Positions 3,330-27,143 of a stretch of 64,000 nt of DNA are shown piece by piece. The notes below the pieces were generated by a model that saw only the letters and a list, made by a program, of their open reading frames with translations, was not told where the DNA came from and searched no databases. The stretch comes from Bacteroidota bacterium (GTDB lineage: Bacteria > Bacteroidota > Rhodothermia > Rhodothermales > Rubricoccaceae), in assembly GCA_022561755.1 (NCBI GenBank), contig JADFQN010000001.1:747-64746 (forward strand). Reading direction: 5' to 3'. The first letter of the stretch is position 1; each line of letters opens with the position of its first letter. The translations under genes and the position numbers were made by a program.

Positions 3330-4724
3330 CTACCCCGAGAACCGCTCCTCCACCGCGTCCGTAAAGGCTACGATGGCGTCGCTGTAGATTTCGACCTTGT
3401 TGGCCTGGTAGGCTTCTTTCAAAATGGGCCAGGCTTCGTCCCAGTTTCCGGCGCGGTCGAGGTCTAGCAGGATGGCCCGGTAGGCGGCCTCCGAACCTCC
3501 GGTTAACTGCCTGGCATACCAATCTCTGCGTTCCGTTGCGGAGGGGCCGAGAACGCGTGTTTCGAGATTGCGGAGGGATTCTGGATAAACCTCCGGTTTG
3601 CGTTTGGCCCTATCGCGGTTGTCGGAAGAGGTATCCGTGGCCTTTGTGCCCTTTTGTTTTTTCGAGTCGGCAAGGCGTTGCCAGAGCTGTTCTTCACCCG
3701 CTGTCTCTTCGACGCCACCCTCGTCATCCTCAACCGGTTCCGGTTCTTCGTCTTGCGTCACTTCAACATCTGTCTCTTCAATGATATTGGCTTCATCTAC
3801 GTCGTTCCCGGTTGCATCAGGAAGAGGCGCCGTCAGAGGAGCTTTTGCTTCCTTCCCACGAGCGAGGCGCTGCCAGAGTGGCTCGGCGCCATCGTCCTCC
3901 ATGATCTCAGGGGCGGATTCTTCCCCGTCCGCCAGCTCTGATCTGGAGTCTTTCCCAGCTTCTTCCATGGCCTCCTCTTCGGCAGGATGAGCGGATTCTG
4001 CTGCGCGGGTCAACACCCCACGCAATCCCTCCCGATCGTAGGCCTTGGAACTGTCCACTCCGGAAGCAACTTCATTGAGGCCTTTGGCCTCGAAAAACTG
4101 CTTGAGAAGCCCCGACGGAACACCGGTTTCGTAATTCGGGATCGCGCCGATCAATTCAAAAAGTGGTTCCAGTAGCGTCATCCAGTCGGACGCACCGAAG
4201 CCGGCCACCATACGCCTGTCGATGCGGCGCAGGAGTTTCTCGAGATCACTCCGGCCGATGCCGTCGAGCGCCTTGCGCTGTACGTAGCCTTCGGCGACCT
4301 CGCGGAAGTACGGGTAAGACGAAAAAGCCGCCATCCGTTCCTGCAAAGCATCCAATTCCAGCACCGCCGAGGCATCGGTGTATGCAAACGAAACGATGGT
4401 TTCCACGGGCTCGACGAGGTAGTTCAGCACCTGCCTCGAGGCCGTCCGCACCGCCTTTGTCCACGCCCCGGCCGGGAACTGAGCGGCTTCTCGGGCTGCC
4501 GTTTTCCAAACCTTGCCTGCCGTCTGAACCAGTTCGTGGTTTGCGTCGAGCCAGGGGGATTGCGGAGCGGCTACTTTCTGGTCGACCCGTCGGTCGAGCA
4601 CGCTGCCGAGGTAGTGCGCCACAGTCCGCGGCAACACGTCCAGATCGCCCCGAGGATGAGGGCGGCCCGCAGGCAGGAGAGTCAACAGATGGGTGGAGAG
4701 AGCCTCGGCGGTGGCGTCTAGCAT
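3330..4724 (-). CDS. Hypothetical protein with a central acidic low-complexity region and a duplicated LWQRLA-x-K-x-K motif
   Basis: The ORF-track frame 3330..5243 is trimmed to the in-frame ATG at 4724 (MLDATAEALSTHLL...). The sequence upstream of that in this frame is Arg/Ser/Thr-rich and overlaps the ArsR-like frame. No family recognised. Confidence 0.55.
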   Translation of the reverse strand: MLDATAEALSTHLLTLLPAGRPHPRGDLDVLPRTVAHYLGSVLDRRVDQKVAAPQSPWLDANHELVQTAGKVWKTAAREAAQFPAGAWTKAVRTASRQVLNYLVEPVETIVSFAYTDASAVLELDALQERMAAFSSYPYFREVAEGYVQRKALDGIGRSDLEKLLRRIDRRMVAGFGASDWMTLLEPLFELIGAIPNYETGVPSGLLKQFFEAKGLNEVASGVDSSKAYDREGLRGVLTRAAESAHPAEEEAMEEAGKDSRSELADGEESAPEIMEDDGAEPLWQRLARGKEAKAPLTAPLPDATGNDVDEANIIEETDVEVTQDEEPEPVEDDEGGVEETAGEEQLWQRLADSKKQKGTKATDTSSDNRDRAKRKPEVYPESLRNLETRVLGPSATERRDWYARQLTGGSEAAYRAILLDLDRAGNWDEAWPILKEAYQANKVEIYSDAIVAFTDAVEERFSG

Positions 4725-4842
4725 GGCACGCGGGGACGGTCGCGAATGATTCGGCAAAGTAACGACGTGCGAAGCTTTGCAGTGTTTCTTGCTTCCTGTG
4801 TGGGACTCACTTCGAGCTATCGACCCAAGGCCTGCTATCAGT

Positions 4843-5106
4843 TCAGTTCGGCCCACTCTCGTCGTTTTGGCAGAGCCGGCCGCAAGCCAGCAGGCCCAGG
4901 CTGGGCACGCTGGGGTCCGTGACTCGGTAGTACGCGAACGCCCCTTCGTGACGGCAACCGACGAGGCCACCGTGGGCCAGAGTGCGGAGGTGCTTGGAGG
5001 TGTTCTGGTGGCTCTGGGCCGCGGCCTCTGCGAGTTATTGTACGGTCGCTTCGCCACGCCCGAGCAGCGTGTTGAGGATGTGAAGCCGCAATGAATCCCC
5101 AAGCAA
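4843..5106 (-). pseudogene. ArsR/SmtB-family HTH regulator (BigR-like context) interrupted by an in-frame TAA
   Basis: My translation of the third minus frame gives (L)LGDSLRLHILNTLLGRGEATVQ*LAEAAAQSHQNTSKHLRTLAHGGLVGCRHEGAFAYYRVTDP...GPN*. The TAA at complement 5037-5035 sits where the family usually has Glu (..ELAE..). No ATG is available; a possible TTG start lies at 5106. The gene is divergent from the YeeE genes. Confidence 0.6.
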
Positions 5107-5133
5107 GTTGTATTCTTCCCATCACAACCTGAC

Positions 5134-5715
5134 ATGACAATCACTATGGACCCTGTTCTACCATGGCCCTGGTATATCGCCGGACCCCTCATCGGCCTGA
5201 TCGTTCTTGCCCTTCTCTTGTTCGGAGGTAAGGTGTTTGGCATTTCTGCGAACCTTCGCCATGCCTGCGCAGCCCTCCCCGTACCTGAATCAATGAAACC
5301 CGGTTTTCTGCGTTACGACTGGCGCAGGACCAGCCTCTGGAACCTCGCATTCGATGCCGGTATCGCTGCCGGAGGATTCATCTGTATTCGCCTCCTCTCG
5401 AATCCGGCAGCCCCCCTGTCTTTGACCCAAGACACCGTCGCCACCCTCCAGCCCCTCGGTTTAACCAACCTTACAAGCTTCCTCCCGTCGCAACTCATCT
5501 CGTGGAGCGCGCTCGCTACGCCCGCCGGTGCGCTGATCATCATTGGCGACGGCTTCCTCGTCGGCTTCGGCGCACGGTGGGCAGGCGGCTGCACGAGTGG
5601 TCACGTGATCTCCGGCCTTGCCAACCTCCAATTCTCCTCGCTCGTTGCCGTGGTTGGCTTCTTCATCGGCGGTCTTTTCATGACGCATTTCATCCTTCCA
5701 CTCGTGCTCGGATAG
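5134..5715 (+). CDS. YeeE/YedE family sulfur-compound transporter subunit
   Basis: 193-aa multi-TM ORF with the characteristic GARWAGGCTSGHVISGLANLQ motif. Confidence 0.85.
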   Translation: MTITMDPVLPWPWYIAGPLIGLIVLALLLFGGKVFGISANLRHACAALPVPESMKPGFLRYDWRRTSLWNLAFDAGIAAGGFICIRLLSNPAAPLSLTQDTVATLQPLGLTNLTSFLPSQLISWSALATPAGALIIIGDGFLVGFGARWAGGCTSGHVISGLANLQFSSLVAVVGFFIGGLFMTHFILPLVLG

Positions 5716-6794: not shown

Positions 6795-7298
6795 GTGCTC
6801 CTAGCCCGTTTGCTCGGGCTGCTTGAACACCTCTCTGACGATGGTATGATGGACAGCCTGGAGGCTGCCCTCGACATGGCCCAGCAGGCGCCTGGTATGG
6901 CCTCGATGATTGTCGACATGGTGGACGAGCAGGCGCAGCACCTCCAGGACGAAGAGATCGACATTGAGGCTGGGCTCACACACGGCCTGCGTGCAGCGCT
7001 TCGGCTCGGCGCCCTCATCGGGCCACGCGAGCTCGATACGCTGCATACGCTGCTCACCTACGAAGCACTCGACCCTGAGGCGATTGCGGTTGTGAGTGAG
7101 GCCGCCTCTGCCCTCCACGCCGCCCACATGGAGTCGCCGCAGAAGATTGGCCTCTGCAGCCTGACACGTTACGCCAGCAATCAACGCATGGCGCCCTCAA
7201 AATCGGGCAGCGGACCTTGGGCCGAAAGCGCTACGCCGCCTCCGCCGTTTCCTCCTCGCGCACCACTTCGTCAAACTTCACCCCCACCAACCGGCTGA
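6795..7298 (+). CDS. DUF1641-like protein (tentative), C-terminus possibly frameshifted
   Basis: The frame of ORF 6498..7298, from a GTG at 6795, reads LLARLLGLLEHLSDDGMMDSLEAALDM...ESPQKIGLCSL. This resembles the KKIGLF.LLKAL.DPD core of DUF1641 as I remember it. The expected continuation (DTLRQQSTHGALKIGQRTLGRK) lies in another frame from about 7160. The ORF overlaps the smc 3' end convergently. Confidence 0.35.
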   Translation: MLLARLLGLLEHLSDDGMMDSLEAALDMAQQAPGMASMIVDMVDEQAQHLQDEEIDIEAGLTHGLRAALRLGALIGPRELDTLHTLLTYEALDPEAIAVVSEAASALHAAHMESPQKIGLCSLTRYASNQRMAPSKSGSGPWAESATPPPPFPPRAPLRQTSPPPTG

Positions 7299-21866: not shown

Positions 21867-22340
21867 CTAGCGCGTGGTGAAATTCAATTCGTTTACGGTC
21901 TCCTCGCCGTTCTCCATTCCGTAGAGCGTACGCGTGAATGCTCCGTCCCCATCGAACCGATAGACAATCCGCGACGGATTCGCGTTGTTCGGATTCTCGA
22001 AGGTCATACCGGTCGGGGAAGCGTCTGTCTGCTCCCAGACCATCACGCCGCCCGTAGACGGATGCGCAATCAGGTAGGTCGTCTCGCCAAGCTCGCCGAT
22101 GGCAACGGTTTCAGAATAGGACGTGTCGCCGGCGGCGATGAAGTAGCCTTCCGATTTCATCATCGAGCCATCTGGGCCCGGTTCCCATCTTTCATGGATT
22201 TCGCCACCGAATGCTTCTGCTACCCAGGTACCGACAAGGGGTGAAGGAGAGTCCACGTCCGCTGGCGCGGCAGCGTGATCGGGCTCGGAGGCGCAGCCTA
22301 TCAATAGAACAGCAAGAACGAAGGAGAGACGGAGCGGCAT
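21867..22340 (-). CDS. Lipoprotein of unknown function
   Basis: 157 aa with signal peptide and lipobox MPLRLSFVLAVLLIGCAS. Composition is protein-like. No family assigned. Confidence 0.6.
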   Translation of the reverse strand: MPLRLSFVLAVLLIGCASEPDHAAAPADVDSPSPLVGTWVAEAFGGEIHERWEPGPDGSMMKSEGYFIAAGDTSYSETVAIGELGETTYLIAHPSTGGVMVWEQTDASPTGMTFENPNNANPSRIVYRFDGDGAFTRTLYGMENGEETVNELNFTTR

Positions 22341-22380
22341 GGCGGCGCGGACTAGATGTGCTAAGAATATAGCATGTGTG

Positions 22381-22884
22381 CTAGTCCTCGGAAGGCAGCG
22401 AGTTCCACATGTCGTGCGCGATGCGCCAGACGCCGTCCGGATCCCGCTGCCAGACGACGAGGTATTTGCCCCGAAAGGGCGGACGGGATTCGCCGTCCTG
22501 CGTGACCGCGCCCTCGTAATAGCCCCAATCGTAGGCGAAGTCTCCGTGGACCTTTAGTTCGACTGGCGTTGCCTGGTGATGCGTAACCACCCGGCCTTCC
22601 GGCAGCGACCACAACTCAAATAAAGCATCATGCCCCCGGACGAATTCGCTCCCACCCGGAGCGGCTATCCCGTCCTCCGCATACACAGCTACCAGCGCCT
22701 CTATGTCTCCCGCCATGTAGGCCTCCGACAAGGCTCTCGATTGGGCGAGGATGGCGGTGATGTCTTCGGAGGGGCCTTCGAACTCAGATCCTCGTTGTGC
22801 CGCGGCGGGATCTCCGATAGCGATCAGTAATATAATGGGCAGGTAACATTTCGACTTTAAGTTGATTCTCATTCGTTTGACCAT
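22381..22884 (-). CDS. SnoaL/DUF4440-like (NTF2 fold) protein with signal peptide
   Basis: The C-terminal segment RGKYLVVWQRDPDGVWRIAHDMWN is typical of DUF4440/YybH-like proteins. The start is uncertain (22899, 22884 or 22872). The first ~25 codons are AT-rich, unlike the rest of the gene. Confidence 0.7.
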   Translation of the reverse strand: MVKRMRINLKSKCYLPIILLIAIGDPAAAQRGSEFEGPSEDITAILAQSRALSEAYMAGDIEALVAVYAEDGIAAPGGSEFVRGHDALFELWSLPEGRVVTHHQATPVELKVHGDFAYDWGYYEGAVTQDGESRPPFRGKYLVVWQRDPDGVWRIAHDMWNSLPSED

Positions 22885-22922
22885 ATGAACGACTTGCACG
22901 ACAATTGTATCAGACCACCCTA

Positions 22923-24356
22923 CTATAGTTTACTCGCAGAGGGTTTGGGAATAGCGTTCACAATCTCAATATCGGAAAGTGGATCTCCTGCTGCAGAGGC
23001 CTCGTTCCTCAACTTGTACAATTCTTGATCCTTCCTGCCCATACGCCCAACATCCAAGACTAAATAAATAGCGCGGCTCGATTGCTCAGCAGCCTTGTAT
23101 GCTTCTAATTGCTTCGAGTAGCCTGAAACAAGTTTTGTGTTGGTTGACAGCTTGACCTCGACTAAGACTTTACTGTCTCCACCTCTGGATACCTTGAAAT
23201 CTACAGGCCCACGGCCAGAATCCGCTTCAGGAGAGATATCAAGGTTGTTCGCCTGACAGTAGGCGTATGCCACAGCAAAAAACAGTCGTTGTGCATACTG
23301 TTCTGGGAGGTGCTTAGAGTCGCGCCAAAGACTCTTTGCCAACCCATTGTTTTCAACCAGTTGACGAAACTGGTCAACAATCTGTCTAACCAAATCGTAG
23401 ACACCTCCCAAATCAAGATCCGTTGGTGCCGTTAGTGAAAGCGGGTTAGCCTCGGCAATTGCCTTGGCCTCCTCTGCCCAACGGCGTAGTCCTGAAGGAT
23501 CGGAGATCGGATCGTAAGGTTGATTCTTCGCTCCCTGTAGTACATCAAGTAGTGTCTTGAAGCCAGCCGCACTAGACATCGCTTGATCACGCAGCAACCG
23601 TTTGTTGCGCTTCGCCCTGGTCGCCCACAGATGTCCAATATGTTGGTTGACTCGGTCTCGCAATATCGAATTGTGGGAGGCAGCGTCAGCGACATCATCC
23701 CAGTCCGTGGCGAGAGGAAGTTCTTTCAACACGTCCGTTGGCACAAGAATGACAGGCGTAGGTTTCGACTCAAATGGATTTTCTGCCAGCCGAATACTTC
23801 GGCCAAGGATGTTGAATCGCTTGGTTGGAACGCCCAGCGACGTGAGTACACGAGTGTTGAATTGAGCCAACGCGTCGATAATCACGTTGGTTGTCATGTC
23901 ACTGATTCGATCAGGTCCGACGCCTTCTTCAAACAAGGCCAGGGCGACAAATAGATTGGGGTCGCGGACGCCGAGATCTACTATCTCCTTGGCTGTTCTC
24001 ATCACGTCAGCCGTCAGTTTCTCGCCAAACGCACTGCCTTTGATTGACGAACCGTAGCCCAAGCACGTACCACTCACCTCATGGAATTGAAAAAGCTTGA
24101 TAGCTCCCCTCCATGCAACGTCTCCCTTCATCGAGGAAGCCTGCAGAAGAGAAATTATGGTTTGAAAATGGTTGGTATACTGAGCGACAGCAACGGAGTT
24201 CATTTCAGAGTGTTTGCTGTGCGCTAGTAACAATGGATCAATGAAGAGCTTGGTGTCTATCGCCAAAGTTGGATTGAGGACACCAAGTTTTACCATTTCT
24301 TTTGGACTTACTCCGTAGTGAGCTGAAAAAGTAGCAGGATTTTTGAGGCGTGCCAT
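22923..24356 (-). CDS. Orphan 477-aa protein with an N-terminal domain of unknown family and a C-terminal PD-(D/E)xK-like nuclease core
   Basis: Single long ORF in a low-GC islet. The C-terminal motif order is PEQYAQRLFFAVAYAY, then GRGPVDF, then KVLVEVKLS, then KQLEAY. Confidence 0.7.
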   Translation of the reverse strand: MARLKNPATFSAHYGVSPKEMVKLGVLNPTLAIDTKLFIDPLLLAHSKHSEMNSVAVAQYTNHFQTIISLLQASSMKGDVAWRGAIKLFQFHEVSGTCLGYGSSIKGSAFGEKLTADVMRTAKEIVDLGVRDPNLFVALALFEEGVGPDRISDMTTNVIIDALAQFNTRVLTSLGVPTKRFNILGRSIRLAENPFESKPTPVILVPTDVLKELPLATDWDDVADAASHNSILRDRVNQHIGHLWATRAKRNKRLLRDQAMSSAAGFKTLLDVLQGAKNQPYDPISDPSGLRRWAEEAKAIAEANPLSLTAPTDLDLGGVYDLVRQIVDQFRQLVENNGLAKSLWRDSKHLPEQYAQRLFFAVAYAYCQANNLDISPEADSGRGPVDFKVSRGGDSKVLVEVKLSTNTKLVSGYSKQLEAYKAAEQSSRAIYLVLDVGRMGRKDQELYKLRNEASAAGDPLSDIEIVNAIPKPSASKL

Positions 24357-24446
24357 ATTTACTTGTGAAGAATTACGATTTGTAGTGTTTTATACGGGTA
24401 TCGTGCTCATATGTTTCAGTTCATGAATCTGGCATAATCGACGAAA

Positions 24447-27143
24447 TCATGCCTCCCCACCCTCGGCCATCAACGCCTGCCCCGCGCCTGATGCGGGGTG
24501 CCCGTTCGTCGCGGCAGCCTCTTCCCCTGAAGCCTCCGTCGTCAGCGTAACCCCTTCGCCGCCGGGGGCGGCGTCGATCACGACCGTGTCGCCGTCGCGG
24601 ACGAAGCCGGCGAGGATCTGCTCGGCCAGGCCGTTGGCGATCTGGCGCTGGAGGACGCGCTTGAGGGGCCGGGCGCCGAAGACGGGGTCGAAGCCCTCCG
24701 CGGCCAGGCGGTCCTTGGCCTCGTCGGTGAGGACGAGCTTGAGGCCGTGGTTCTTCTCGGCCCTCGCACGGATGTGCTCGAACTGGATCTCCACGATGCG
24801 GCGGATCTCCTCGCGCCCCAGCGACCGGAACACGATGATTTCGTCGATCCGGTTGATGAACTCGGGCCGGAGTTGCTCCTTGAGCCGGTTGTTCAGGTCG
24901 AGGCGTAGCCCTTCCATCTCGGTGTCGGATAGCTGCCCGTCCTCGGCCATTTCCATCCGGCGCCGGATGAGATCCGACCCCAGGTTGCTCGTCATGATGA
25001 TGAGCGTGTTCGTAAAGTCGACGGTGCGGCCCTTCGCGTCGGTCAGGCGGCCGTCGTCCAGCACCTGCAGGAGAACGTTGAACACCTCCGGATGGGCTTT
25101 TTCAAACTCGTCCAGCAAAACGACAGAGTACGGGCGCCGCCGGACGGCCTCGGTAAGCTGACCGCCTTCGTCGTAGCCGATGTATCCCGGAGGCGCACCG
25201 ATGAGGCGCGACACGGTGTGGCGCTCCTGGTACTCGCTCATGTCGATGCGGACGACCGCGTGCTCGTCGTCGAAGAGCTGCTCGGCGAGGGCTTTGGCCA
25301 GCTCAGTTTTCCCCACGCCCGTCGAGCCGAGGAAGATGAACGATCCCAGCGGGCGGCTCGCTTCCTGCAGGCCCGCGCGCCCACGCCGGACGGCGTTCGA
25401 TACGGCCTCGAGGGCCTCGCTTTGGCCCACCACGCGCTCTTCGAGCGCAGCTTCCATATCCAGCAGCTTCTCCTTCTCGGTCTCCAGCATCTTGGTCACG
25501 GGGATGCCCGTAGCGCGCGAAACCACACCCGCGATGTCCTCGGCGTCCACTTCTTCCTTGAGCATCGCGCCGTTCTTCTGGGCTTCCACCAGTTTCGCCG
25601 TTGCTTCCTCGATTTCGGTTTCCAGGGTCGGAATCTGCCCGTAGCGGATCTCCGCAACCTTGCCATAATCGCCCTGCCGTTCGAGATCGGCGGCCTTCGT
25701 CTTGAACGCGTCGATGGCCACCTTGCGGTCCTTGATGGTCTGCACGAGGTCGCGTTCCTGCTCCCAGCGGGCATGCAGCCGGCCGCGCTCCTCTTCGAGG
25801 TCGGCCAACTGCTTCGTGATTTCCTCCTCCTGCTTTGTATCGCCCTCGCGCTTGACGGCTTCCCGGGCGATCTCCTGCTGCGTGATCTCGCGCGTTACCG
25901 CGTCCAACTCCTCCGGCATGGAGTCGATTTCCATGCGCAGTCTCGACGCAGTCTCGTCGATCAGGTCGATGGCCTTGTCGGGCAGGAAGCGGTTGGTGAC
26001 GTAGCGATCCGATAGCTCGGCGGCAGCCACGATGGCGCCGTCCGTGATGCGGACGCCGTGGTGGACCTCGTAGCGGTCCTTGATGCCGCGCAGGATGGCC
26101 ACCGTTTCTTCCACGGAGGGCTCGGCGACGAGCACCATCTGGAAACGCCGCTCCAGCGCCTTGTCCTTCTCGAAGTACTTCTGGTACTCGTCCAACGTCG
26201 TCGCGCCGATGGCGCGCAGTTCTCCGCGAGCGAGTGCCGGCTTGAGGATGTTGGCGGCGTCCATCGCGCCCTCAGCGGCGCCCGCGCCTACGAGAGTGTG
26301 GATTTCGTCAATGAACAGAATGATCTCGCCCTCGGCATCCGTCACTTCCTTGACCACGGCTTTGAGACGGTCCTCGAACTCGCCCCGGTACTTCGCGCCC
26401 GCGATGAGTGCGCCCATGTCGAGCGCGAGGACACGCTTGCTTTTGATGCCCTCGGGCACGTCGCCCTGCACGATGCGGATGGCGAGGCCTTCGGCTATTG
26501 CCGTCTTCCCCACGCCCGGTTCGCCAACGAGGATCGGGTTGTTCTTGGTGCGCCGCGAGAGGATCTGGAGCACGCGGCGGATCTCCTCATCGCGCCCGAT
26601 GACGGGGTCGATTTTGCCTTTCCGCGCGAGGTCGTTGAGGTCGCGCGCGTAGCGGTTGAGGGCGTCGTACTTGCTTTCGGCGTACGGGTCCATCACGCTC
26701 TGGCCGCCGCGCACATCTTTCAGAATCTCCAGGATGCGCTCTCGCGTGACTTCCTGATTGGCGAGGGCCTCCGCAATGGCGTCTTTGGCCTCTGCCATCG
26801 CGATCAACAGGTGCTCGGTAGCTACGTAGGCGTCGCCGAGCTTGTCCGCTTCTTTCAGCGCCCGGTCGAAGACCTTATTCAGCTCGTTGCCCACGTACTG
26901 CCCGGTCACGGACGCGCCGCTGACCTTGGGCAGCTTCTCCAGCGCCTCGTCGGTCTTCGTGCTGATGTAGTCGATGTTGGCGTTGAGGCGCTGCAGGATC
27001 GTGGTGACGAGCCCACCCTCTTCCTGGAGGAAGGCCTTCATCAGATGCGGCGTCTCGATGCCCTGATGCGTGTGGCTCTGGGCGATCTCCATCGCGGCCT
27101 GCACGGCCTCTTGCGCCTTGACGGTAAACTTCTGGAGGTTCAT
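24447..27143 (-). CDS. clpB: ATP-dependent chaperone ClpB
   Basis: 898 aa with two AAA+ modules ([10 protein letters not shown] and [12 protein letters not shown]), a middle coiled-coil domain and an N-terminal Clp repeat domain. Confidence 0.97.

Follow-up and report, generated by a model that had tools for sequence, protein, structure and literature searches.

The window analysed here, a 64-kb stretch of a contig from a Rhodothermales-like Bacteroidota metagenome-assembled genome (MAG), carries a low-GC islet at 22820..24446, delimited by a shift in G+C content and by breaks of homology with two related contigs (L087 and L085, described below), whose single gene codes for a 477-aa protein composed of the domains DUF8370 and DUF8371. 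On balance, the family to which this protein belongs is probably a mobile, stand-alone defence system directed against phages or other mobile genetic elements (MGEs), in which one polypeptide combines a sensor and a nuclease. The open reading frame (ORF; 22923..24356, minus strand) starts with ATG, ends with a stop codon at 22923-22925 and is intact and full-length, and its translation contains the motif strings quoted in the original prediction. The protein is identical to GenBank MCH7637859.1, deposited as a “hypothetical protein” of a Bacteroidetes MAG. It is encoded between two resident genes located on the same strand, namely clpB (24447..27143, 898 aa), which forms the upstream flank of the slot, and a gene coding for a secreted DUF4440/SnoaL-like protein (22381..22899), the first ~25 codons of which (about 22815-22887) are AT-rich. 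The gaps between clpB and the ORF and between the ORF and the DUF4440 gene contain no further genes.

The region 22825-24446 has a G+C content of 47.9% compared to 60.9 ± 2.1% elsewhere in the window (1.6-kb windows, z = -6.1) and represents the minimum of the entire 64 kb, and the G+C content at third codon positions is 49.6% in the 477-aa gene vs 86% in clpB. The values of 43, 48 and 56% counted by hand in the original prediction at 23101-23200, 24101-24200 and 23401-23500 were reproduced exactly, and the clpB sample at 25001-25100 gave 63% instead of 64%. The short flanks, claimed to be even more AT-rich, are so indeed, with 39.6% at 22830-22920 and 34.4% at 24357-24446. The latter flank is the 90-nt intergenic region upstream of the gene (24357..24446, minus strand, 34% GC), presumed to be a promoter and 5′ untranslated region carried in along with the gene, and nothing recognisable as a promoter past weak consensus matches is found upstream of the 477-aa gene. 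No terminator-like sites were found in 22300-24700, no Rfam families were detected in the islet, and RNA folding of the islet and the 5′ region was likewise empty.

On the clpB side, the edge of the islet lies directly after the clpB stop codon, with the GC fraction rising from 0.37 to 0.68 over ~60 nt at 24445. On the DUF4440 side, it rises from 0.37 to 0.60 at ~22820, inside the signal-peptide codons, the placement of this edge being uncertain within about 22765-22922. As had been proposed, there are no hallmarks of a classical mobile element: no tRNA was found in the whole window, matches between the islet flanks are only of the size expected by chance, and there are no ORFs coding for an integrase, a transposase or a methyltransferase near the islet. 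A perfect 14-nt inverted repeat is located at 24437-24450 and 24835-24848, one arm of which, ATCGACGAAATCAT, extends over the stop codon of clpB into the first 10 nt of the islet, with its reverse complement lying 385 nt off within clpB and encoding ..IDEII... The rough chance expectation for such a repeat is 0.01-0.03 occurrences per 2.7 kb, and it could either mark microhomology used in the insertion or be coincidental.

Relatives of the locus were found via the flanking DUF4440 protein, and their contigs were compared at the clpB-DUF4440 slot. In L085/L086 (a 1.2-Mb contig), the clpB gene of which is 80% identical to that of the window at the nucleotide level, the slot is empty, with about 170 nt between the genes (L085 about 6830-7000). 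In the near-conspecific L087 (clpB identity of 96.8% at the nucleotide and 96.3% at the amino acid level), it spans 1.47 kb with 49% GC and is occupied by a different gene of 372 aa located on the opposite strand (1296-2767). The 372-aa protein has no match other than itself among 5.8 billion proteins, and its Pfam and PADLOC scans were empty. In L100/L101 (81-83% amino acid identity over the available C-terminal tail of ClpB), the slot has a length of about 650 nt and 47% GC and codes for a 193-aa protein with a hydrophobic N-terminus (L100:180-825; L101:158-834). The cargos of L087 and L100/L101 thus have 47-49% GC vs about 60-64% in their flanks, where clpB and the DUF4440 gene are conserved, and since the slot is either empty or holds a 372-aa, a 193-aa or, in the window, the 477-aa gene across one lineage, there are at least four slot states, with every cargo being AT-rich. 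The islet is therefore foreign, a single gene inserted at a slot whose content varies, which agrees with the original claim that the gene was acquired and is not an old resident, and the clpB-DUF4440 slot is a recombinase-free integration hotspot where unrelated AT-rich single-gene cargos are exchanged among close relatives.

Nucleotide homology between the window and L087 ends exactly at the clpB stop codon and restarts only at ~22765, past the signal peptide, so that the first ~25 codons of the DUF4440 gene are non-homologous to those of the near relative. The AT-rich DNA had been proposed to continue over these codons, which is confirmed by the GC profile, and to have replaced the 5′ end of the DUF4440 gene. 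Judging from the point where homology with L087 restarts, the replacement is plausible, but among the 15 orthologues aligned this signal peptide is hypervariable throughout, and the window version keeps the conserved terminal A-x-A-Q. The two contigs also differ by an indel of 24 nt shortly before the clpB stop codon, in the part coding for the C-terminal tail (24470-24500), the window having eight codons (PASGAGQA) more than L087.

The fast turnover of the slot among relatives, together with the solitary position of the gene and the weak promoter matches, would suit an inert remnant of a past transfer which has no function in the window genome. This is hardly credible, as the ORF is intact and full-length, retains every family-invariant residue and possesses its own 90-nt AT-rich upstream region.

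Based on modelling, the C-terminal 140 aa of the protein are predicted to be a PD-(D/E)xK nuclease domain with the complete conserved catalytic set consisting of E352, D386, E400-x-K402 and Q416. The domain, which corresponds to DUF8371 (aa 337-477, 22926..23348, minus strand), was delimited with the domain model, Foldseek and weak profile matches, and the codons of its catalytic core are located at 23151..23201 on the same strand (D386 at 23199-23201, E400 at 23157-23159 and K402 at 23151-23153). The full-length AlphaFold2 model (pLDDT 83.6, pTM 0.82) contains an α-β-β-β-α-β-α-β unit at residues 352-467, and residues 337-477 modelled alone reached a pLDDT of 88.7. According to DSSP, the models comprise helices 352-369 and 409-422 and strands 374-379, 385-389, 396-403 and 427-435, which make up the restriction-endonuclease-like α/β core typical of the superfamily. 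The superfamily motif is placed on this core, with D386 on strand 385-389, E400-V-K402 on strand 396-403 and E352 on the first helix.

When the model of aa 337-477 was used to search the PDB with Foldseek, almost only this fold was retrieved, in agreement with the nuclease core postulated earlier. The best match was E. coli SfsA (E = 2.6e-4, probability 1.00, query-normalised TM-score (TMq) 0.48), and the other top matches, nearly all of the restriction-endonuclease fold, include the RPB5 N-domain, Cdn1, DdmD, EcoO109I and PaqCI, followed by a CdiA-CT toxin, EcoT38I, PspGI, Mus81/Hef, NucS/EndoMS and Nt.BspD6I. SfsA (PDB 4dap) is the closest structural match of the nuclease domain, yet it is only 17% identical to it, possesses an N-terminal OB-fold, is encoded by a conserved chromosomal gene and shows no relationship to the window protein at the sequence level. 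The whole-chain Foldseek search against the PDB and BFVD gave no matches at E ≤ 1e-3, the top rows being long alignments with high root-mean-square deviation, though enriched in nucleases. A type IIS-like reading, prompted by Nt.BspD6I and PaqCI, was rejected, as there is no methyltransferase and the N-terminal domain is acidic and, instead of being variable, highly conserved.

The putative catalytic residues, those named in the original prediction among them, are conserved throughout the family. E352, Q356, D386, K388, E400, K402 and Q416 are invariant in 35 homologues with 51-71% identity, and in 69 homologues with 33-50% identity D386 and K402 are invariant, with E352, E400 and Q416 conserved in at least 90%. 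The residues D386, K388, E400, K402 and Q416 are kept in plasmid-borne relatives at 27% identity, and D386, E400 and K402 are invariant in an eight-sequence comparison including relatives at 27% identity. At the profile level, no curated superfamily sequence model matched significantly and there were only sub-threshold matches, which for the 69 members comprised PDDEXK_9 in seven (best 6.2e-4), DpnII-MboI in two and Mrr_cat, NucS_C, SduA_C, NOV_C and LmuA in one each. These weak profile matches appear to point the same way, independently suggesting a nuclease. The Pfam-A scan of the nuclease domain of the window protein was without a match, since PF28123 and PF28130, the families to which the protein belongs, are missing from the Pfam copy scanned. 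The C-terminal tail S473-A474-S475 is near-invariant, and the terminus S-A-S-K-x as a whole (22926-22940, aa 473-477) is almost invariant even at 27% identity, an uncommon feature of protein ends; the tail might dock in a pocket of the N-terminal domain or in the active site, leading to autoinhibition, or mediate oligomerisation.

Residues 337-435 also align to positions 1169-1271 of the 1318-position EruA model (NCBIfam NF058535; E = 3.3e-5), and 11 of the 69 members match it; the nuclease module is therefore similar to the one at the C-terminus of a named antiphage STAND (signal transduction ATPase with numerous domains) protein. Unlike EruA, the window protein lacks the NACHT NTPase and is a third of the length, and the match scores 22 bits against a cutoff of 1000. 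No source publication for EruA/HyoA (NF058535, NF058534) was found in a literature search. The 392-aa product of Bacillus thuringiensis plasmid pKK1 (L089, coding sequence 4410-5588) matches the query at residues 308-477 only, with 36% identity, so the DUF8371 module also sits behind another N-terminal region.

The N-terminal region corresponding to DUF8370 (aa 1-336, 23349..24356, minus strand), delimited with the model and alignments, is mostly helical with one small β-meander at aa 179-203 and a flexible Gly-rich loop at aa 100-111, the pLDDT dropping below 50 at aa 102-106. Its residues D34, G100, G107, G147, D149 and D153 are invariant at 33-50% identity, P41, E93, Y101 and S152 are conserved in at least 90% at the same identity level, and D34, D40, P41, E93, G100, G107, G147, D149, S152 and D153 are kept at 27% identity. 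The family medians of net charge are -4 for aa 1-228, +4 for the linker at aa 229-262 (+6 in the window protein) and +4 for the nuclease domain. Being acidic and highly conserved, with Asp, Glu and Gly as invariant residues, the N-terminal domain resembles a pocket for catalysis or for binding a ligand or metal more closely than a DNA-specificity module of the variable kind, and it is presumed to be a sensor/regulatory or a second catalytic domain. The conserved basic segment (aa 229-262, 23571..23672, minus strand), recognised by its net charge and partly low pLDDT (below 50 at aa 244-249), is a possible nucleic-acid-contacting linker. It is also the only part of the protein drawing sequence matches in the PDB, all of them non-significant, namely to ribosomal protein bL35, which is an RNA-binding basic peptide. 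The bL35 match on the linker and a DOT1L match, obtained with phmmer and profile searches of PDB sequences, were discarded as noise, as was a Pfam ABATE match (E = 0.018).

The only sequence relative of the N-terminal region is the PADLOC model PDC-M36A, which matches aa 29-214 (E = 1.3e-10) and is also matched by 68 of the 69 members (best 1.4e-19), the match covering only profile positions 26-214 of 457. PDC-M36 is a candidate three-gene cassette (FAM_01399>>FAM_00303>>FAM_00303) from a “guilt-by-embedding” study (Payne et al. 2024 preprint, bioRxiv 10.1101/2024.01.29.577857), and the PDC candidates of PADLOC rest on guilt-by-embedding in type I restriction-modification (R-M) systems (the same preprint). 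Like the present family, PDC-M36 was identified embedded in R-M-type systems; unlike it, PDC-M36 has cassette partners, which are absent both at the window slot and among the conserved neighbours of family members. A wider literature search for PDC-M36 returned nothing relevant.

The architecture of the protein has several parallels among known systems. Type IV restriction enzymes of the Mrr/MspJI kind, as well as Shedu SduA and Can2/Card1, share with it a C-terminal PD-(D/E)xK effector, a single polypeptide, the lack of a methyltransferase, mobility and a sporadic distribution, whereas its N-terminal domain is unrelated to the winged-helix, SRA, DUF4263 N-terminal and CARF domains, no curated model scoring above threshold. 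Likewise, the CARF/SAVED nucleases Can2, Card1 and Cap4 differ from it, as the mostly helical N-terminal domain has no CARF/SAVED match. It differs from type II R-M systems in that an adjacent cognate methyltransferase is lacking at the window and none is recurrent outside type I/III operons.

The superposition of the nuclease domain is best with Can2 (TMq 0.50-0.53, the maximum), and Cdn1 is matched as well (TMq 0.40). Together with the conserved pocket-like residues and the flexible Gly-rich loop of the N-terminal domain, this would fit an effector activated in trans, comparable to Can2/Card1 of type III CRISPR (clustered regularly interspaced short palindromic repeats) systems or Cap4/NucC of CBASS (cyclic-oligonucleotide-based antiphage signalling systems), with the N-terminal pocket binding a nucleotide second messenger made elsewhere. 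Such a role is very unlikely, given that the mostly helical N-terminal domain shows no CARF/SAVED-like fold or sequence signal, that no cyclase, CRISPR or TIR genes are recurrent near family members, and that the gene is the only cargo in the P4 hotspot described below.

The original prediction referred to the 477-aa protein as an orphan, which proved incorrect. At least 1,907 clusters at 90% identity match the window protein, the homology being full-length, and among the best 120 matches listed the length is 475-514 aa and the query coverage 97-100%. A HMMER search of 1.84 billion representatives returned 1,969 clusters at 50% identity with E ≤ 1e-3, 562 of them with E ≤ 1e-30; the best 150 are mostly about 470-490 aa long with full-length matches and the remainder look truncated. 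Precomputed Pfam annotation places PF28123 (DUF8370) and PF28130 (DUF8371) on the window protein and on the 120 homologues listed, and the two-domain architecture is fixed across about 2,000 clusters. The protein also matches phrog_30194 over positions 1-476 of 478 (E = 2.8e-151). The family is thus already on record as Pfam DUFs, as a PHROG, as a distant PADLOC candidate and as an entry in a supplementary table, which means that the gene as such is no discovery, and a literature search for DUF8370/DUF8371 and PF28123/PF28130 yielded nothing relevant.

With one genome per species, the family was found in 161 of 185,579 species, at 40-67% identity. The hosts include Bacteroidota, all classes of Pseudomonadota, Acidobacteriota, Planctomycetota, Verrucomicrobiota, Nitrospirota, Chloroflexota, Patescibacteria, Melainabacteria, Actinomycetota and one archaeon, and 20 plasmids carry a member. 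Compared with their hosts, family members are AT-rich; in E. coli, for instance, the copy has 35% GC in a locus with 50%. A gene which is rare, sporadic, phylogenetically scattered and AT-rich shows the features expected of an accessory gene that moves horizontally, and such a low frequency (also 13 out of 5,426 complete E. coli genomes, see below) is typical of accessory defence genes.

To characterise the genomic company of the family, all the ORFs within 5 kb of the gene were clustered for 84 loci. No partner gene is conserved in more than 10 of the 84 loci and there is no tandem paralogue. Tyrosine integrases are found beside the gene in 10 loci, and the type I R-M genes coding for HsdS, HsdR and HsdM in five to six loci each, where they are usually located upstream on the same strand and abut the family gene. 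Other recurrent neighbours are Fic proteins (six loci), serine recombinases (four loci) and PIN toxins (four loci). Methyltransferase genes recur only where a separate type I/III system stands. In a pooled Pfam/PADLOC scan, the 150 nearest neighbours proved to be a mixture of genes for defence and for housekeeping.

In the closest relative with available context, the gene order is an integrase fragment, Abi_C, the family gene, HsdR, Bro-N and HsdS, and in another locus the gene is preceded by a SNF2 helicase and an OLD/TOPRIM ATPase and followed by an N6/N4 methylase (Mod, overlapping the family gene by 4 nt), Res, PIN and DUF499. The member on a Rhodobacter megaplasmid is accompanied by SIR2, DUF3427, GIY-YIG, an AAA ATPase and a recombinase, and that on an 18.9-kb conjugative plasmid of Nitrosospira by an integrase, XRE regulators and RelE/ParE modules, while a relative with 27% identity is the cargo of a Tn3-family element in Sinorhizobium.

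Another relative with 27% identity, from Paenarthrobacter ureafaciens plasmid pA (L092, NZ_CP094490.1 1197-8572), stands at the end of an operon of four tightly overlapping genes in the order DNA methyltransferase (905 aa), DEAD/DEAH helicase, GIY-YIG nuclease and the relative itself, with an Hsp70-family cluster next to it on the other strand. This operon looks like an uncharacterised multi-gene R-M-like system which recruited the two-domain protein. In five to six unrelated genomes (L064, L052, L080, L021, L081) a gene pair coding for an HNH-motif protein (~330 aa) and a MazG-like protein (~120 aa) stands beside the family members, and this pair may be a small defence module of its own.

Chromosomal copies were found in the 13 complete E. 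coli genomes mentioned above, labelled “hypothetical protein” or, in the newest RefSeq, “DUF8370 family protein”. The E. coli proteins are full-length members with 46% identity and all the key residues present. In strain KMi029, the gene order is ssrA, integrase, the family gene, psu, a delta-like regulator and, further on, Icd-like and primase genes, and the locus is a P4-like satellite, with the family gene as the sole occupant of the int-psu interval. This interval has been described as a reservoir of antiviral systems (Rousset et al. 2022, PMC9122126), and the hotspot was also defined in a further study, in which six of eight randomly chosen loci with functions unassigned protected E. coli against phages (PMC13586616). 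The six systems named there were compared with the DUF8370-DUF8371 protein and set aside, their architectures being different. The KMi029 protein, WP_089584712, occurs three times in Table S1 of Rousset et al. (2022) as the sole “hypothetical” gene of the psu-int locus, which is below the curation threshold of five occurrences used by the authors (PMC9122126), and no sign of its having been assayed was found. In strain 4012, the family gene lies at one end of an integrative mobilisable element with a relaxase and an integrase. Residence in a documented defence hotspot is a property of the family, found in E. coli, and not of the window locus.

The family as a whole is associated with R-M operons, defence islands, mobile elements and a validated defence hotspot. 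The frequent linkage to integrases, resolvases, relaxases, toxin-antitoxin modules, Tn3 elements and plasmids, as well as the PHROG membership, which implies a prophage or satellite origin of some members, would also be expected if the protein served the mobile elements themselves through addiction, exclusion of competitors or help in recombination and integration, or if it were an accessory of DNA repair or recombination with no part in defence. We consider this quite unlikely, because there is no mobile element around the gene in the window and several other loci, the P4 copy sits in the cargo hotspot, outside the core module, and the overlapping reading frames within R-M operons fit defence better; as for DNA repair, the sporadic distribution is incompatible with a housekeeping role.

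The sharing of loci with type I/III R-M operons is also common for type IV, modification-dependent enzymes, the usual layout of which is an N-terminal reader followed by a C-terminal Mrr-like cleavage domain. If the family were of this kind, the N-terminal domain would read modified or non-self DNA and the C-terminal domain would cut it, and no methyltransferase or trigger would be needed, because the cutting of such DNA would be constitutive. This would account for a solitary nuclease lacking a cognate methyltransferase in the window and most other loci, and the weak Mrr_cat and DpnII-MboI matches and an AspBHI-like N-terminal domain in one neighbour agree with it. However, no SRA, EVE/PUA, YTH, winged-helix or DUF262 reader was detected in aa 1-336 using Pfam, NCBIfam, PADLOC and Foldseek, the domain is net acidic, and its invariant residues are Asp, Glu and Gly instead of the aromatic or basic ones of base-flipping pockets, which makes a type IV enzyme somewhat unlikely.

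Among the readings offered by the original prediction, namely a single-gene defence system, a type IV enzyme and a selfish remnant, it is the first one that the R-M operons, islands, plasmids and P4 hotspot appear to support. According to this sensor-nuclease reading, a single-gene cargo with no recombinase of its own entered the clpB-DUF4440 hotspot of the Rhodothermales-like MAG. The acidic N-terminal domain, with a pocket formed by D34, D40, E93, D149, S152 and D153 and the Gly-rich loop 100-111, would act as the sensor or regulator, holding the nuclease inactive as long as neither an infection cue nor foreign DNA has been sensed. Nucleic acid would be bound by the basic linker (aa 229-262) together with the nuclease domain, which is basic as well, and the nuclease would cleave DNA in a Mg2+-dependent manner, so that either the invading DNA would be destroyed or abortive infection would follow through cleavage of the host DNA.

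Several points weigh against the sensor-nuclease reading. The neighbour counts over the 84 loci carry no background enrichment statistic, and solitary copies stand among housekeeping genes in the window, in L096, where the gene adjoins dnaJ, and elsewhere; because many loci are of this kind, the defence-island signal is not universal. No fold relatives of aa 1-336 were found with Foldseek at E ≤ 1e-3 and there is no Pfam match, and since the N-terminal domain is left with no detectable relative, the sensor role is purely inferential. A tblastn search of 50,697 sequenced phage genomes returned zero family members despite the PHROG membership. In the databases, the members are always annotated as hypothetical or DUF proteins. 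Finally, a nuclease lacking an immunity partner must be tightly self-regulated.

A more far-reaching proposal, which we regard as possible and short of probable, is that DUF8370 is a new type of sensor or catalytic domain, which together with the PD-(D/E)xK effector would define an unrecognised single-protein immune system present in almost every bacterial phylum and in at least one archaeon. Its conserved acidic pocket and Gly-rich loop would bind a novel trigger that activates the nuclease, be it something made by the phage, a ligand resembling a nucleotide or some feature of DNA.

The family is a solid defence candidate with an unexplored domain, in a field which already lists hundreds of such candidates. 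It is directly testable, since E. coli has natural copies that are the sole cargo of the P4 int-psu hotspot, a setting where most of the tested loci lacking an assigned function proved protective. The clpB-DUF4440 hotspot can help to explain how defence genes are disseminated independently of classical mobile elements in little-studied lineages of Bacteroidota and Rhodothermales. If the sensor-nuclease reading is true, the family would represent a compact one-gene pan-bacterial immune module with a sensing domain unlike anything characterised, and new sensing domains tend to yield new mechanisms of trigger recognition and new tools.

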